64,000 bases of DNA, from the sequence record QB031382.1; one strand, written 5' to 3'. Source of the stretch: a phage. The position numbers and the translations under genes were made by a program. This document shows, one piece after another, positions 2,979 to 9,843 of this stretch. Positions within the stretch are counted from its first letter, which is position 1, and each line of letters opens with the position of its first letter. The notes beneath the pieces were generated by a model. The model made no database searches. It was not told where the DNA came from and saw only the letters and a program-made list of their open reading frames with translations.

Positions 2979-3461
2979 ATGTCAGATTTTATGTGGAAAG
3001 TAGGTTACGCAGCTCCTGAAATGTGTGAGGCTTGCTTTGTGAAAATAGGCCGCGAGGATATCGACAAAGTGATCCTTAAGTTTCGTGATGTGGCTGTGAT
3101 CGGCAACCGAGTGCTTAAGCACTTAAAGAATTTGAAGCTCACTAAAAAGAAGTTCTTCGGACTTTTCGAAGAGAAAGTTGATGCTTGGACCCATTGCATC
3201 CAGGAAGCTAAATCTCACTACAGTGCTATCGTTACTCCAGAACGGGTAGCCAAGATGGAAGGATTCATCAACAGCACAGAATTTGAGTGTCTGAAAGCTG
3301 CACTCGATAGTTATCCGAAATGCCTCAAGCACTTGGACAAGTATGTAGAAAAGGATGGGGAAATGTATCTCACCCTGGACGCATACTATGAGATGCAAGA
3401 AATTTTAAATTTAGATTTGACATTGGTATCCACCGAGTATACAATAGGTATCCGGGTTTAA
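2979..3461 (+). CDS. hypothetical protein
   Basis: SD AAGGAGA upstream; 160 aa. Confidence 0.55.
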   Translation: MSDFMWKVGYAAPEMCEACFVKIGREDIDKVILKFRDVAVIGNRVLKHLKNLKLTKKKFFGLFEEKVDAWTHCIQEAKSHYSAIVTPERVAKMEGFINSTEFECLKAALDSYPKCLKHLDKYVEKDGEMYLTLDAYYEMQEILNLDLTLVSTEYTIGIRV

Positions 3462-3512: not shown

Positions 3513-4277
3513 TTGAAATTCATCTACAAAGAACACTACCACAAAGGTGTTGTGTGGAGTCTATTTGACGGGTCTGGTGGTGCAGTTATTGACTGGGCAA
3601 AAGCTGGGTACCTGTGCCTGTGCTTTAATGCAGAAGGTGCTGACCACGGCAGTTATGCAGAGGTGATAACCGATCATCCAAATATTCACTATGTGGATTA
3701 TTGGATTGACCCATGGTTCCCTCAAGAAACTTTTTGCATGTATCCAGCTCCAGACTTTATTCTTGCATTTCCTCCGTGCACGCATTTAGCGGTATCAGGA
3801 GCTGCACACTTTAAGAAAAAGCTGGCTAAGGACCCACTGATCCAGATTAACGCTGTAAAGGATGCTCGGGTTGCAGAAGAGTTGGGAGAGATTTACGATT
3901 GCCCGTGGCATGTAGAGAATCCTGTGGGTGTTATGTCCACGCTGTGGCGCAAACCTGATTACCGTTTTCACCCTTCTGATTATGGCGGGTATTTACCGGA
4001 GGATGATGTAAACCCCTGGTTTCCTGAATTTATAGCTCCACGTGATGCCTATCCAAAAATAACTTGCGGCTGGATAGGTAATGGATTTATAATCCCGGTC
4101 ACAAAACCTGTCCCGCAAATAGTTGACGCGGTTAGCGGGTATTCCATGCAACACGCCAAGCTGGGGGGAAAGAGTGCAAGAACAAAGATGATTCGAAGCC
4201 TCACACCCCGTGGCTGGGCAAAAGCTGTATTCTTAGCAAACGAGCCTGCAGTAAGGAGCAGAATTAATGGGAAGTAA
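3513..4277 (+). CDS. C5-cytosine DNA methyltransferase-like protein (small)
   Basis: Motif I WSLFDGSGG, PC motif AFPPCTHLAVSGA, ENV-like HVENPVGV, motif X-like GNGFIIPV; TTG start after SD AGGAGA, since the tool start lies inside the terminator. Confidence 0.55.
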   Translation: MKFIYKEHYHKGVVWSLFDGSGGAVIDWAKAGYLCLCFNAEGADHGSYAEVITDHPNIHYVDYWIDPWFPQETFCMYPAPDFILAFPPCTHLAVSGAAHFKKKLAKDPLIQINAVKDARVAEELGEIYDCPWHVENPVGVMSTLWRKPDYRFHPSDYGGYLPEDDVNPWFPEFIAPRDAYPKITCGWIGNGFIIPVTKPVPQIVDAVSGYSMQHAKLGGKSARTKMIRSLTPRGWAKAVFLANEPAVRSRINGK

Positions 4278-6345
4278 ATTTATGGCATCTGCATACAACC
4301 GTTTCGGTGAGCCAAACCCGAAAGCAACTAAGTATAAAAGTGGGGGAAGTGTGAAACGAGACTATCGTGATGAAAAAGAAGTTGAAACTGTAGAGACTGT
4401 TTTAGAAAATACCAAAATTGTCCCCGTCCCACAACAAAATATCGGTCTGATGGCTGCACAATATTTTGGTGTGCGATCAGCATTATCCCAAGAAGATGGT
4501 GTGACAGTCACTGCAACATATTTCCCATATTACGACCGCTACGGAAATCTGTCCGGTTTCAAAAAGCGTGACTGGACGATTCCTAAAGAGCAAAGAGGCC
4601 ATTTCTCCGTTGTTGGCATAGTAAAGGCTAACTCTCAGATGTTTGGTCAAAAGCTGTGTGCATCTTCCAACAACCGTAAGCAGATTAACGTTTGTGAGGG
4701 AGAAGGTGATGTTATTGCAGCATGGCAGGCTGCATATCAGATACAAGTAAAAGGGATTCTCACCAACGCTAAAGCCCCGGCAAAGGTGAAACAGTGGGCT
4801 AAAGAGGTCCAGGACGGGATCGATGCAGTTATCAACGGTGGCGATCTGGCAGGAAAACCATGCCTGCCTTTTGTTGGAATTAACTGTGGATGTGCAAACG
4901 CAGTAGATACTTTTGCAAACAATGAGAAGTTTATCCGTAGCTATGGAACAGTTGTGCTGGCAATGGATAACGATGCAGCTAACGAGGTAGAGAAGCAAAA
5001 ACACGTCATTAAAGGTGTTGAGGCCACGCACAATATCGCAGCATTTTTGATGGCTGATAACGTTTACCACGTGGAATATCCTGGCGAGGTAAACGACCCT
5101 GATGGTGTAAAAGATATCCGTGACATGCTGAAGGCTAAAAAGCTGGAAGATATTGTAAACATGTTCCGGCATCCTGTTAAGTATGTGCCGGATGCTGTGT
5201 CGGATTTAGAAGACTTCTCTATCGAATCTTTGCGGAAAAAGACTTCCAACGGGGTAGATATCAGCGCAGAGTTCCCAAAACTGCAAAAAATGCTGAAAGG
5301 CTTGCACAAAGGGACACTCGTAATGCTTACAGGGCCATCAGGGGGCGGTAAAACAACTGTAGCTAAAAAACTGGAACATTGTATTGCAAGATACTTGATG
5401 GACCCGACATGCCCGAAGGCCGATGACTATGAAGAGGATGATCGTCTATGCATGATCCATCTTGAGGAGGACCCAGAGGAAGCAATTAACTCCTTGTATG
5501 CAAACCAGTTAGGGTTTGATGTTAAAGAGTTTGTTGAAGATCCTAGCCAGTTTTTAACTGATCAAGAACACGCAGAGATTCACCAATCATGGGCAAAAGC
5601 TGGAAAAATCAAAGTGTTCAAACATTTCGGATCTATTCCGGTGGACGAGTTGATTACCAAGCTTAAGCAAATGGTTTGCCTGTACCATTGCCGTTATATT
5701 GTGCTGGATCACCTGTCCATGGTAATTTCAGGGCTTAATGTTAAGGATGAGCGAAAAGAGCTGGACATGGCTATGACCCAACTGGCTGCGTTTTGTAAGC
5801 AGTTTAACGTGTTTATCCTAGTGATCGCTCACCTCAAACGTACAGAGATTGTGCCTCCTAAGGACAAGGATGGTAACCCGTTACCTTTCTGGTATCCTGT
5901 GCGAAAAGAGAATTTGCGAGGATCGGCTGGGCTTGAACAGTTGAGTTGGGTAGTCATAGGTGTTGAGGCTGAAGAAATGGTAGATCGTTCTCGTGGTCGT
6001 GTCCGTTTAGTAGGTCTTAAAAACCGTCCAGCAAAAACATTGGGTATTGCGGATACTTTGGTTATGGACCCACATACAGGTAAGTTCCATGATGCCAGTA
6101 ATTGGTACTGGGACAAAGAAATGCAGATGTTTACAGACGGAGAAGGTGGGGAGGTTGTTTGGAGACCTCAGGCCATGTTTGAGGACCAAGAGCATGCAGT
6201 TGTAGAAACACCTATGGGCAAGGTTGTAGCTGATAAGGTTGTAACTCCTACTATTAAGCCTGTTGACACGCAGGAAGACCTCCAGTACGATGATCCATCT
6301 TCTGATCCGGTCCCCGGTTTTGAAGATGATGAAACACCTTTTTAA
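4267..6345 (+). CDS. bifunctional DNA primase-helicase (TOPRIM + DnaB-like helicase)
   Basis: TOPRIM motifs CEGEGD and LAMDNDAANE; Walker A LTGPSGGGKTT; SD AAGGAG upstream. Confidence 0.8.
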   Translation: MGSKFMASAYNRFGEPNPKATKYKSGGSVKRDYRDEKEVETVETVLENTKIVPVPQQNIGLMAAQYFGVRSALSQEDGVTVTATYFPYYDRYGNLSGFKKRDWTIPKEQRGHFSVVGIVKANSQMFGQKLCASSNNRKQINVCEGEGDVIAAWQAAYQIQVKGILTNAKAPAKVKQWAKEVQDGIDAVINGGDLAGKPCLPFVGINCGCANAVDTFANNEKFIRSYGTVVLAMDNDAANEVEKQKHVIKGVEATHNIAAFLMADNVYHVEYPGEVNDPDGVKDIRDMLKAKKLEDIVNMFRHPVKYVPDAVSDLEDFSIESLRKKTSNGVDISAEFPKLQKMLKGLHKGTLVMLTGPSGGGKTTVAKKLEHCIARYLMDPTCPKADDYEEDDRLCMIHLEEDPEEAINSLYANQLGFDVKEFVEDPSQFLTDQEHAEIHQSWAKAGKIKVFKHFGSIPVDELITKLKQMVCLYHCRYIVLDHLSMVISGLNVKDERKELDMAMTQLAAFCKQFNVFILVIAHLKRTEIVPPKDKDGNPLPFWYPVRKENLRGSAGLEQLSWVVIGVEAEEMVDRSRGRVRLVGLKNRPAKTLGIADTLVMDPHTGKFHDASNWYWDKEMQMFTDGEGGEVVWRPQAMFEDQEHAVVETPMGKVVADKVVTPTIKPVDTQEDLQYDDPSSDPVPGFEDDETPF

Positions 6346-6403: not shown

Positions 6404-8827
6404 ATGAGCATGTGGTCGTTCGATTTTGAGTCATCCGGTTTGCTGGAAGACCCAGATCTTTATTATCACTGCGGTCTGTTTAAAGAGTTGAATAAGAACC
6501 GTTTTATGCTGTTCCTTCCTCTAAATGACCGCACACACTACTCCGAGGAGGATATAGAAAAGGCTAAGAACTTCATTCTGGCAAAGAAAACTCTTTATAA
6601 AGATTTTGAAGTTCGCATAGCAGATTTTTCGGAGTTGGAAGGTTGGCTTACAGGAAATTCTGACTGGTCACCAACAGCTTTGAACTGCCATAACTGCTAC
6701 AGTTATGACTTTATGCTGATGGAAAGATTATCCGGTATTCATTTTGATATGTTCCGTGATCCTAAATGCATGGGGACTATCAACGACCACCAGGTTAACC
6801 TGTTTGATACGTTGGCGATGAGCCGAATCTTATGGCCTGATCGCCCTTTACCAAAAGGTTGTCCTGACTCCGTATTCAACCCGGTTACTAAGAAAATGCA
6901 GCCTGTTGGTCCTCACGGCCTTATGGCATGGGGCTACGCCCTTGGTAACCAGAAAGTTCAAATTGATGACTGGCGCGATCTTCCGTTGTGGAAGTATGTG
7001 GATCGTGTATTCGAGGACGTTATCATCCAGGAGCTGCTCTGGAAAGAGCTGGTAGCGGAATCAAAAGGTGTATTCTACGGCAAATCTGACATGCAGAACT
7101 TTATGTACGATCCTGCCAAAGAGAAGCCGAAAGGGTTCAAGAAGATCACCTGGAAGAACGCATTGCGCCGGGGTATGCTGCAACACTTCCTGATGGAGCT
7201 GCAGGCCCGTCAGGGTGTGTATTTTGACATAGATGGGGCTATTGCTTTACGTGACCGTTGCGATGCGTGGATGAAAGAAATCGCTGATCGTGTTGAACCA
7301 CAACTACCTTTAAAAGAGCTGTCAATGTCTCAGCGGCCCAAGTTCCCTGAAAAGCCGTTTAACCAAGATGGGACAATCTCCAATAATGGTTGGAAATGGT
7401 TAAAAGATAAGCTTGGCTATCCTGTGGACATGAGCGCTTTAGAGTTCAAAGCCCCACCTAAGCGAGCATTTACCTCCACAGGGGATGTCAGTAAGATGGG
7501 GATAAAATGGTGTGAAGAGATGGGCTGTAAAGACCCTGATAAGATGGCTGATTTCTTGAGGGGCTATATTAAGGGCACTTCCACACCACAACCTTTACCT
7601 AAAGAGCTAATGGATCAGGCAATAAGTGATCTACAGCAGAAGCGAATGCCTGACTGCAAGATACCTATGAAAATCAGCAATCAGGACGACATTAAGCGAT
7701 ACCTGATTAGTGCTGGTTGGCTTCCGACAATGTGGAGAACTAAGGATGTAACTAAAGACAGCAAGAAGAAAGCTCTACCTGATGCAGATGTTGATGCACG
7801 AGTATATGCATATATGGACGAGCTTTTAGAGTCAGAGTATTGTGACCTGATTATCAACTTCTGGAACAAAACTGATGCTAAGTTCCAGACAACCGTGCAC
7901 AAGTTCCGAAGCTTTCCTAACTCCGAAAGGATTAAAAAGGAAGTATTCGGGAAAATACGTAGAAAAGCTAGGGCACTTATTACTTCTCCGCAACTGAAAG
8001 ATACGTTTGGACACCTATGCCCTAATCTTGAAAAATTGAACGGAGAGATGGCTAAAGATATCGTCTTGTGGTTATCATTGCGAAACCGCAGATCGGTACT
8101 TGATCCAATTAAGGAGGATAAGGTTGATACTGGTCTTCTTAATCACCCACGTTTGAAGATTGACCATAAGCTTCCTGCTAAAAGTTCTGGGTTAACAAAC
8201 ACTTCCCGACAGAAACACAGTATTTGTGCGAACATGCCTAAACCATCTCCTAAAGTGGTTATGGGTAAAGAGATGCGTAGTCTGTGGGGTGTTCCTCCGG
8301 GATACTTTGAGATCGGTATTGACGGGTCCAACTTAGAGCAGCTTATCGGGGCTTGGGGTGCCTTTGAGTTCGACAACGGCTTGTATTATGATGTTGTAAG
8401 TAACGGGGACGCACACCAAAACAATGCTGAGGCATATACAAAAGTAGCAGGCAGAGAGGTGTCTCGTAACGACGGTAAACCTATCACGTATGGGGTTATG
8501 TACGGGGCACAAAAAGATAAAGTTGCAGACATGCTGGATATCTCTCCAGAGTTGGGGCAAAGGGTAATCGATGCGCTTTGGGATGCCAACCCCGGTCTTA
8601 AGGGGCGTAAAGAGGATCTAGAGAAATTCTGGGAAGCAACAGGTAAGAAATTTATCTACTCTTTTGACGGTCATGCCATTTGGACCCGCTCTAAACACTC
8701 TTTGCTTAATGCATATCAGCAAAATGGCGGTGCCTCGTTGTGCGACTTGGTCGGAATCCTCATGCACCACCAAATGGTGAAGCGTGGATGGTATGATGAG
8801 GGTGTTCGTCGTATTATTTATTACCAT
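6404..8827 (+). CDS. DNA polymerase, family A, exon 1
   Basis: Exo I SFDFESSGL, motif A GIDGSNLEQL, motif B KPITYGVMYG; exon ends at the CAT (His) codon 8825-8827 before the intron. Confidence 0.85.
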
Positions 8828-9155
8828 AAATAACATTGTGGCTTCGTGCAGTGATGCACGTCGAAAACCTCTTTAATTGACGGGAAGGCTAAGTTGACTT
8901 TTACACCTAAACATGGTAAAAGCTCAATATGCTAATCCGCAGCGAAGCATCCGAGAGGATGAACGTTCAGAGACTATCGAAAGCATAGCTCCAACATAGT
9001 TTGGTGTGAAGAAGCGAGTAGAGTAGGCCAGCAAGTGCGGTCGAAATGAGAGGTGCCTTGGTAACAAGGCAGTGAGATAGTCCGATCCATACGGGAAACT
9101 GTATGGCTATGCACGTAATGGTGCGGGGTAGCTTAACGACCTACCTGAACTATTG
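8828..9155 (+). ncRNA. group I self-splicing intron (no ORF) in the DNA polymerase gene
   Basis: Core elements P AATTGACGGGAA (8875-8886), Q AATCCGCAGC (8934-8943), R GTTCAGAGACTA (8965-8976), S GAGATAGTCC (9074-9083); U before 5' splice site pairs with guide GUGG 8838-8841; G9155 precedes 3' splice site. Confidence 0.75.
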
Positions 9156-9509
9156 GATGAGTACCAACTTCAAGTACCTGACACACCGAAGTATAAGACT
9201 GTGTACACCTTCGACACAATCGAAGAACTGGAAGCATTTAAGGCAGAGCAGGAGGCCAAACTTCATGTGTTCGACGGTCATAAGTACAAAAAGGCACGCA
9301 AGGATGAGGACGGAAACGAAGTGGTTGACAAGGACGGAAATACGGTATACGATCCTATCTTGAACGATGACGGAAAGCTTGAACTTATCTGGAGCCCTGT
9401 GGGCGAAATGGTGGTGCATTGCTTCTGGCAAGCTTCTAAAATGATGGGCGTTCCGTTCCAGATCACAGGTGAATACTTGTGTGGTCGTAATTGGGGTGAT
9501 TGTCACTAA
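9156..9509 (+). CDS. DNA polymerase, family A, exon 2
   Basis: Begins GAT GAG, completing motif C HDE after splicing; ends with PolA C-terminal motif GRNWGDCH. Confidence 0.8.
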   Translation, partial: DEYQLQVPDTPKYKTVYTFDTIEELEAFKAEQEAKLHVFDGHKYKKARKDEDGNEVVDKDGNTVYDPILNDDGKLELIWSPVGEMVVHCFWQASKMMGVPFQITGEYLCGRNWGDCH

Positions 9510-9558
9510 TGTAAACTATCAACACATGGAAGTGTTGTTGAGCAAAGAGGAGACTTTT

Positions 9559-9843
9559 ATGGTAGTAGAACCAACAAAAACATTTACATCCATGACTATC
9601 CCTGTTATTATGCAGGTGGAGTGTGTTCAGGTATCTCAAGTGTGGCCAGGCACTAAAATCCCAACAGGGCCTGATTTCTTTCAGGTTGGCAAAGTGTACA
9701 ATGTCTGGAAGGCACCAGATTGTTACCCTTTCATCAAAGATGACCGTGGAATGCTGTGGTATCTTGGAAATGATTTGACACTGCACCTTGGGAATGCTAT
9801 TATTGCAGTATTCAGACTTAACAAGAAGGAGACTGATCAATGA
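9559..9843 (+). CDS. hypothetical protein (KDDxG paralogue family)
   Basis: SD AAAGAGGAGA before ATG; motif FIKDDRGMLWY shared with neighbours. Confidence 0.5.
   Translation: MVVEPTKTFTSMTIPVIMQVECVQVSQVWPGTKIPTGPDFFQVGKVYNVWKAPDCYPFIKDDRGMLWYLGNDLTLHLGNAIIAVFRLNKKETDQ

Follow-up and report, generated by a model that had tools for sequence, protein, structure and literature searches.

Positions 8828–9155 on the + strand of the window, the 64-kb stretch of phage DNA analyzed here, very probably constitute a phage group I intron of the IA type that resides in the family A DNA polymerase gene of an rV5-like coliphage. The intron is 328 nt long, lacks an ORF, and, as read from the sequence, divides the catalytic motif C of the polymerase between its histidine and aspartate. 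The fold of the intron, the covariation among its homologs, its exact boundaries, the reading frame restored by its removal, and its presence/absence polymorphism are established in this analysis. From homology with the intron at the same site in phage CB7, we infer that the 328-nt allele is spliced. The interrupted gene is organized as follows:

6404–8827, + strand: exon 1 of the family A (T7-like) DNA polymerase gene, 808 aa ending in ...RRIIYYH
8828–9155, + strand: group I intron, subgroup IA-type, without ORF, 328 nt; identified by Rfam, the intron-less allele, covariation, and MFE folding
8831–8833, + strand: in-frame UAA stop codon, one codon past the 5' splice site
9155, + strand: omega-G, the terminal intron guanosine, assigned from the intron-less allele; the 3' splice site is between 9155 and 9156
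9156–9509, + strand: exon 2, 117 codons from the motif C D-E to ...GRNWGDCH, and the stop codon

The window is a part of the genome of an rV5-like E. coli phage (Vequintavirus), and its region 6404–9600 has 95–97% identity with more than 100 rV5-like phages. The upstream neighbor of the polymerase ORF is a primase/helicase gene (4267–6345). The first polymerase ORF (6404–8833) ends with the codons CAT AAA TAA (...IIYYHK-stop), and the second ORF (9153–9509) has the C-terminal end ...GRNWGDCH; the ORF list thus confirms the layout described in the first-pass annotation, which placed a stop at 8833 and GRNWGDCH in a second ORF. Exon 1 encodes the exonuclease region and polymerase motifs A and B, as judged from the ORF list, the alignment to T7 gp5 (E 7.5e-16), and colinearity with intron-less alleles. 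Exon 2 is colinear in intron-less relatives at identities from 99% down to about 30%. Because the 328-nt spacer has a length of 3n+1, the two ORFs are in different frames and cannot be joined by read-through. Joining position 8827 to 9156 yields a 925-aa product with the junction ...RRIIYYHDEYQLQV..., and a peptide across this junction would contain ...IIYYHDEYQLQVPDTPK. Upon excision, CAT meets GAT GAG, which gives YYH/DEYQL (the slash marks the splice junction).

The spliced protein aligns to T7 gp5, a polymerase with solved structures, over gp5 residues 468–658 (E 7.5e-16). The segment yyHDEyql lies over wvHDEiqv, so that the H-D-E of the joined protein falls on gp5 H653-D654-E655, which contains the motif C carboxylates, as the first-pass annotation had anticipated for the spliced product. 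The Pfam DNA_pol_A score of the spliced protein is 31.8 bits, slightly under the curated cutoff of 34.3, and the assignment to family A therefore depends on the T7 gp5 alignment. A 227-aa junction peptide compared with PDB sequences matched T7 gp5 and did not match Klenow. A chimeric 63-aa query composed of motif C and the C-terminus, designed to align GRNWGDCH with the C-terminus of T7 or Klenow polymerase, retrieved only spurious WD40 designs from the PDB sequences.

The boundaries of the intron were determined from intron-less alleles. The sister phage JeffSchatz reads ...TATTACCAT/GATGAGTACC..., and the insertion in the window is therefore exactly 328 nt long, with boundaries free of positional ambiguity. 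The joining of 8827 to 9156 proposed in the first-pass annotation, in which CAT and GAT GAG recreate HDE, has its exact counterpart in the DNA of this intron-less allele. The insert is missing precisely from the close relatives JeffSchatz, nomo, MaxBurger, HdK5, and others; further close relatives carry variant introns at the same site. The 227-aa junction peptide is present in one colinear piece in intron-less Vequintaviruses at 99% identity, and the same single-piece junction occurs in the more distant phages 4MG (64%), ICP1 (41%), and Pseudomonas Pakpunaviruses (about 30%). No homolog aligns across 8828–9155 as coding sequence, in line with the intron proposed at first reading. Every fetched homolog has the ..H/DE.. 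site, a U preceding the intron, and a G at the intron end, the terminal G being common to 11 of 11 homologous introns. A search for a second copy of the intron within the window did not find one.

The Rfam model Intron_gpI (RF00028) matches the + strand at 8818–9105 with a score of 75.6 bits (gathering score 50, E 2.2e-17), and the match covers model positions 1–253 of 253. The score and E-value exclude a chance match, and the scan of the whole 64-kb window returned no other Rfam match. The strong, full-length match bears out the group I assignment of the first-pass annotation, as do the four core elements that it had located. Elements P (8875–8886, AATTGACGGGAA), Q (8934–8943, AATCCGCAGC), R (8965–8976, GTTCAGAGACTA), and S (9074–9083, GAGATAGTCC) each match a conserved core block of the RF00028 alignment. 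The Rfam model ends at 9105; the remaining 50 nt of the intron form P9.1 and P9.2, which are supported by covariation. The secondary structure is composed of the following elements, for which a cell is one base pair in one aligned sequence and double changes are changes on both sides of a pair:

8824–8841, + strand: P1 and the 5' splice site; 8824–8829 paired with 8836–8841, 6 bp
8845–8860, + strand: P2 hairpin; 6 bp, GUGA loop; two-sided changes in 6 of 6 pairs, 100% of cells paired
8867–8873, + strand: P3, 5' strand; partner 9048–9054; double changes in 3 of 7 pairs; present in the unconstrained MFE fold
8878–8941, + strand: P4-P5 domain; from the Rfam alignment and a segment fold
8878–8884 with 8936–8941, + strand: P4, from the P and Q elements
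8887–8889 with 8931–8933, + strand: P5, with a peripheral extension hairpin at about 8893–8927
8942–8944 with 8964–8966, + strand: P6; the P6/P6a element spans 8942–8966
8948–8961, + strand: P6a hairpin, CAUCC-GAGA-GGAUG, with covarying pairs
8970–8976, + strand: P7, 5' strand, within element R; partner 9078–9083; pseudoknot with P3
8977–9047, + strand: IA-type insert of 71 nt between P7 and P3'
about 8977–9018, + strand: P7.1, variable and weakly supported, with 35% of cells paired in the MAFFT alignment
9023–9025, + strand: GUA linker directly preceding P7.2; columns invariant in 11 sequences
9026–9042, + strand: P7.2 hairpin; double changes in 3 of 4 pairs
9048–9054, + strand: P3, 3' strand, followed by P8
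9055–9070, + strand: P8 hairpin; GUAA loop; double changes in 5 of 6 pairs
9078–9083, + strand: P7, 3' strand, within element S; from a complementarity check and covariation
9087–9106, + strand: P9; GAAA loop; 98–100% paired, double changes in 4 pairs; present in the MFE fold
9111–9124, + strand: P9.1, outside the Rfam model; 98–100% paired, double changes in 2 pairs; present in the MFE fold
9127–9145, + strand: P9.2, outside the Rfam model; 98–100% paired, double changes in 3 pairs; present in the MFE fold

The P1 helix is formed by the exon nucleotides CCAU (8824–8827) and the intron nucleotides AA (8828–8829), which pair with the guide UUGUGG (8836–8841). The wobble pair U8827·G8838 marks the 5' cleavage site; the pairing of U8827 with the guide GUGG at 8838–8841, put forward in the first-pass annotation, is thus contained in a 6-bp P1. 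All six pairs are formed in 11 of 11 homologs, and the U·G pair is invariant (11/11), as expected of a helix made partly of catalytic-motif codons. The P5 extension is absent from the 276-nt allele of the intron and from that of Vibrio phage K412, which indicates that it is dispensable. The P6a hairpin has the sequence CGCUC-AAAA-GAGCG in the 276-nt form, and P6a is the location of a 528-nt ORF-bearing segment, annotated as HNH, in relatives. The six pairs of P7, which is the guanosine-binding site of group I introns, are 100% paired, two of them with double changes. An insert between P7 and P3', with the extra helices P7.1 and P7.2, is the signature of subgroup IA. A G-U-A linker that joins P7.1 and P7.2 is a criterion for IA/IA2 phage introns (PMC3428280).

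Ten nucleotides, the last of which is G9155, separate P9.2 from the end of the intron. A possible P10 helix of 3–4 bp could pair the 3' exon GAUG (9156–9159) with CAUU (8834–8837), and both strands are nearly invariant. A natural variant of this pairing is found in Pseudomonas phage SPA01, in which the exon reads GAC and compensation is absent. The strands of every core helix are complementary, and the unconstrained MFE fold of the intron recovers P1, P2, P3, P6/P6a, P8, P9, P9.1, and P9.2, and its stability exceeds that of all 100 shuffles (z = -2.7).

Polymerase-gene introns at the same ..H/DE.. position are present in Avunavirus (18-1-2), Seunavirus (SSE121, PVP-SE1), and Certrevirus (CB7, phiTE), as well as in Aeromonas Plateaulakevirus, Pseudomonas Pakpunavirus SPA01, and Vibrio phage K412. 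The covariation set consisted of 11 introns from seven phage groups: three from Vequintavirus, one from Avunavirus, two each from Seunavirus and Certrevirus, and those of the Vibrio, Pseudomonas, and Aeromonas phages. Endonuclease ORFs were removed before alignment, with cuts placed according to the Q and R motifs and the annotated limits of the ORFs, and the helices of the window intron were projected onto the alignment, P7 being encoded as a pseudoknot. Phage FV3, which is redundant with the window, was omitted, as was Aeromonas phage 4L372D, whose 5' part yielded no P4 3' strand or Q element. Salmonella phage Meda (Felixounavirus) and Pseudoalteromonas phage PH357, which gave short core matches only and whose introns lie off the HDE site, were not used.

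Standard pairs are formed in 93.2% of the cells, compared with 36–40% when the partners are slid by 1–3 columns, and 35 of the 72 pairs changed on both sides, compared with 4–13 in the slid controls. Because the window sequence itself supplied the structure, the percentage of paired cells is biased upward, but the count of double changes is not. The covariation score of 0.416 exceeds the control range of 0.055–0.091, and none of 500 shuffles reached the observed value. Double changes support each of the helices P2, P3, P6a, P7, P7.2, P8, P9, P9.1, and P9.2.

The sequence around the splice sites is consistent with the expression of a single polymerase. The in-frame UAA at 8831–8833 lies one codon past the 5' splice site, as noted in the first-pass annotation, and the same K-stop is retained in all Vequintavirinae homologs. 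A stop occurs within three codons of the 5' splice site in 10 of the 11 introns, and the Avunavirus intron has nine codons before its stop. The UAA may serve to halt ribosomes on unspliced RNA before they reach the ribozyme core. Neither a Shine-Dalgarno-like or purine-rich ribosome-binding site ahead of 9153 nor an in-frame ATG was found in the sequence for exon 2, and a consensus scan detected no + strand promoter or terminator within the intron. Small ORFs that overlap the intron have no match to a Pfam protein family, which agrees with its initial description as ORF-less; its relatives carry a 168-aa ORF in the P6a loop. The position of the UAA, the lack of start signals for exon 2, and the lack of a promoter in the intron are consistent with one pre-mRNA, excision by the ribozyme, and one polymerase.

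We propose that the whole gene is transcribed into a single pre-mRNA, in which the intron would adopt the P1–P9.2 ribozyme fold. Free guanosine bound at P7 would attack the phosphodiester 3' of U8827, which its wobble pair with G8838 in P1 presents for cleavage; the 3'-OH released on U8827 would then attack 3' of the terminal G9155. CAU would thereby be ligated to GAU GAG, and the product would be the 925-aa polymerase with the H-D-E of motif C intact. Catalysis by the intron itself is likely, given its homology with the same-site intron in CB7.

The similarity to group I introns could in principle be a product of chance or composition, in which case the 328 nt would be a plain intergenic spacer that separates a truncated polymerase gene from a small gene unrelated to it. 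The records of SYGMH1, JEP1, and rV5 are annotated in this manner, with a "DNA polymerase" followed by a "hypothetical protein" and no join. However, exon 2 holds the D-E of motif C and the C-terminus of the polymerase, and the intron-less alleles fuse both ORFs precisely into one colinear polymerase. Together with the Rfam match (E 2.2e-17) and the strong covariation, the intron-less alleles refute this reading, to which we assign next to no probability.

It is also conceivable, though very improbable, that the intron is a group I relic that has lost splicing, and that the polymerase consists of two non-covalently associated polypeptides, one of 809 aa (ending YYHK) and one of about 118 aa starting from the TTG at 9153, which is in frame with exon 2. 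The endonuclease ORF is lost from the window intron, and in the classical homing cycle the loss of the endonuclease ORF precedes the decay of the intron. Split enzymes and unspliced insertions have precedents: one HNH-associated insertion described in the CB7 paper is left unspliced, and the same paper cites Aeh1 NrdA, which is made as two peptides (PMC7344957). Nevertheless, the core of the window intron is intact and scores higher (75.6 bits) than most of its ORF-bearing homologs (39–54 bits), and the many compensatory changes that preserve pairing in the helices imply that selection still acts on the RNA fold. Ten of the 11 aligned introns combine the U·G pair and the terminal G with a stop within three codons of the 5' splice site. 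Two separate polypeptides would part the histidine from the Asp-Glu within the catalytic motif, and the second would have to be produced from an exon that lacks a Shine-Dalgarno sequence, an ATG, and a promoter. These observations speak against a two-polypeptide enzyme.

Four states of the intron site coexist in Vequintavirus, as seen in 117 records:

Empty site: at least 47 of the 117 records
276-nt ORF-less intron: at least 9 of the 117 records, rV5 included
842-nt intron with a 168-aa ORF annotated as HNH: about 45 of the 117 records, which are not joined and are consistent with the 842-nt form
328/329-nt ORF-less intron of the window type: 4 of the 117 records (SYGMH1, HMD-6, JEP1, and JLBYU08)

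The intron is thus present in some and absent from other closely related genomes at one site, as is expected of a mobile group I intron. A homing endonuclease of its own, the other characteristic of such elements, is missing from the window intron, which would therefore not home by itself. The 168-aa P6a ORF of its relatives is annotated as HNH, and its match to Pfam HNH_3 is weak and below the cutoff (17.7 versus 24.8 bits). Within this one genus, the site is found empty, with an ORF-bearing intron, or with either of two distinct ORF-less introns, so that every stage of the homing cycle is represented at a single position; this makes Vequintavirus a convenient natural system for studying the gain and loss of endonucleases.

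The 842- and 328-nt forms are separated by a modular swap of P6a. Apart from P6a, the 328-nt form and the FV3-type 842-nt form share 99.7% identity. Where the 842-nt form has its 528-nt ORF-bearing P6a segment, the 328-nt form has instead the 14-nt hairpin CATCCGAGAGGATG, which has zero sequence overlap with the ends of the ORF segment. The hairpin and its flanks (window 8933–8969) are identical in 37 of 37 positions to the intron of the terminase gene TerL of rV5-like phages, and a similar hairpin, CATCCCTACGGGATG, closes P6a of the ORF-less Avunavirus polymerase intron. Phage PVP-SE1 carries a LAGLIDADG gene, not HNH, elsewhere in the same intron, which illustrates that the gain and loss of endonuclease genes are independent of the ribozyme.

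Two histories fit these data: the hairpin may be ancestral and the HNH gene may have invaded it later, or the ORF may have been purged recently through exchange with the terminase intron. We tentatively raise the idea, which we consider rather unlikely, that the 328-nt allele is not a relic of slow decay but the outcome of a recent clean swap of P6a, in which the terminase-gene intron of the same lineage was the partner in ectopic recombination. If this were the case, two introns of one genome would act as mutual donors, providing a route by which homing endonuclease genes could be purged or acquired while the ribozyme remains intact.

Both the element and its site are already known, since the intron is annotated in sister genomes and a homolog at the same site was shown to splice. 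In Vequintavirus records of the BASEL collection, the polymerase is annotated as a two-piece join with introns of 276 nt (RudolfGeigy and MaxTheCat) or 842 nt (EmilHeitz); the ORF in the EmilHeitz intron is annotated as a homing endonuclease. Subtracting the intron from the CDS span leaves 2778 nt in both RudolfGeigy (3054-276) and EmilHeitz (3620-842), which corresponds to the same 925-aa product as that of the window. These introns share with the window intron the gene, the TACCAT/GATGAG site, and identical first 17 and last 50 nt. The window intron is set apart from the 276-nt form by its P5 extension, its long P7.1, and compensatory changes in P2, P6a, P8, and P9. The intron boundaries in the BASEL collection were defined by comparative genomics, as stated by the authors (PMC8594841). 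The rV5 genome paper describes introns in the terminase gene only (PMC3606486). Among the phages with the 328-nt allele, the annotations of SYGMH1, JEP1, and JLBYU08 mark no intron, and that of HMD-6 contains two separate polymerase CDSs. As the same intron is known at the exact site in related phages, the finding is an ordinary one, and its practical value lies mainly in the correction of records that split the polymerase into two genes. The records of rV5, SYGMH1, JEP1, and JLBYU08 should carry a two-exon join that encodes one 925-aa enzyme.

The second polymerase intron of phages CB7 and phiTE (Certrevirus, Vequintavirinae) occupies the exact ..RRIIYYH/DEYQL.. site. Its 5' end, which translates as K-stop-HCGF, is the same as that of the window intron, and the 3' halves of the two introns are homologous. 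Removal of the CB7 intron, located between CB7_51 and CB7_49, from the mRNA was shown by RT-PCR and Sanger sequencing (PMC7344957). Unlike the window intron, the CB7/phiTE intron is 687 nt long, contains the HNH gene CB7_50, and has a diverged P4-P6, and the polymerase gene of these phages has a further upstream intron that is absent from the window gene.

The TerL group I intron of rV5-like phages resembles the window intron in the 37 identical nucleotides at 8933–8969, which comprise Q, P6, the P6a hairpin, and the start of R, and in 49 of 52 nt overall. It resides in a different host gene, the remainder of its sequence has diverged, and its endonuclease ORF is positioned downstream of R and not in P6a.

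Outside the rV5-like phages, the polymerase genes of SPO1, SP82, Bastille, and Pf-WMP3 contain introns at site 674, and that of phiL7 at site 676 (PMC3428280). Like the window intron, these are group I introns that interrupt family A polymerase genes of phages in conserved regions; association with HNH genes is usual, and the Pf-WMP3 intron is described as IA2 (PMC3428280). They differ from the window intron in their location, which is in the fingers subdomain and not in motif C. The T7-like phages ΦI (PhiI) and W31 are reported to have self-splicing IA2 introns at Pol I site 881 in E. coli numbering (2004; PMC3428280). These introns resemble the relatives of the window intron in carrying an HNH ORF in P6a, and their phages resemble the window phage in infecting enterobacteria; they are distinguished from the window intron by their ORFs and podovirus hosts. 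We take Pol I site 881 to be the histidine of the same H-D-E, based on Klenow numbering (catalytic D882/E883). Since T7 D654 is equivalent to Klenow D882, the T7 gp5 alignment equates site 881 with the H/D junction by way of this correspondence and not by direct alignment. A preference of group I introns for the most conserved catalytic codons in essential replication genes of phages is well known, and the window intron is a further case.

The pairing predicted at the 3' end of the window intron involves two invariant segments. In the MFE fold, GAUCCAU, positioned just after P7 (9084-9090), pairs with AUUG|GAU over the 3' splice site (9152-9158). The pairing could be a P9.0-like contact that would position the terminal G; since both strands are invariant, it could also be a coincidence. 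An out-of-frame ORF of 86 aa (9103-9363, + strand) has its start within P9 and extends into exon 2; the corresponding ORFs in FV3 (FV3_00207) and rV5 (ORF 226) are annotated as hypothetical proteins. A search for a family match to the 86-aa product gave none, and the ORF is almost certain to be an artefact of annotation.

The ORF-less allele has a 329-nt variant in phage JLBYU08 (301-629 of L019; L-numbers denote the fetched sequences of relatives). The 3' tail of this variant is CTGAACAGATG instead of CTGAACTATTG, and its P2 stem is that of the 276-nt form, with the loop GUGA instead of GUAA. These two features indicate mosaicism among the polymerase intron alleles. The alleles also occur in some 16-20 GenBank entries (MG0656xx) that bear the name "Campylobacter phage" and give C. 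jejuni as host; these entries are 92-97% identical to the E. coli Vequintavirus polymerase locus. The naming or host attribution of these records looks doubtful.

A 37-nt block is identical between the polymerase intron (window 8933-8969) and the group I intron in the large-terminase gene of rV5-like phages (1241-1277 of L020, MaxBurger MZ501093). The block takes in Q, P6 and the P6a hairpin CATCCGAGAGGATG and reaches into the beginning of R. Overall, the match between the terminase and polymerase introns is 49 of 52 nt. This similarity suggests that the two introns are akin, or swap segments inside one genome.

In the 842-nt allele of FV3, the counterpart of the window P6a loop (8948-8961) is split between 3121-3160 and 3640-3665 of L002. 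A long-range helix, GGGGUGUAGUU ... AACUACACCU, loops out the ORF annotated as HNH. Because this helix takes in the purine-rich stretch just 5' of the AUG of the ORF, RNA structure may hold down translation of the endonuclease. The homologous H|DE-site intron of Salmonella phage PVP-SE1 (L012) contains a LAGLIDADG endonuclease gene (1692-2285) and no HNH gene; the LAGLIDADG gene is located downstream of R, in the P7.1/P7.2 region, and not in P6a. In the intron of Aeromonas phage 4L372D (959-1698 of L009), the ORF is bracketed by an 11-bp helix, CUUGACAAAAC ... GUUUUGUCAAG, directly before R. No Q/P4 3' strand was recognisable in this intron, which may be rearranged or degenerate.

Polymerase genes of Certrevirus carry an additional group I intron farther upstream (895-1565 in both CB7, L008, and phiTE, L013), as apparently does that of Seunavirus SSE121 (325-547 of L007). 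These upstream introns score 37-52 bits against Rfam. The window polymerase gene, in contrast, is uninterrupted where CB7, phiTE, and apparently SSE121 have the upstream intron.
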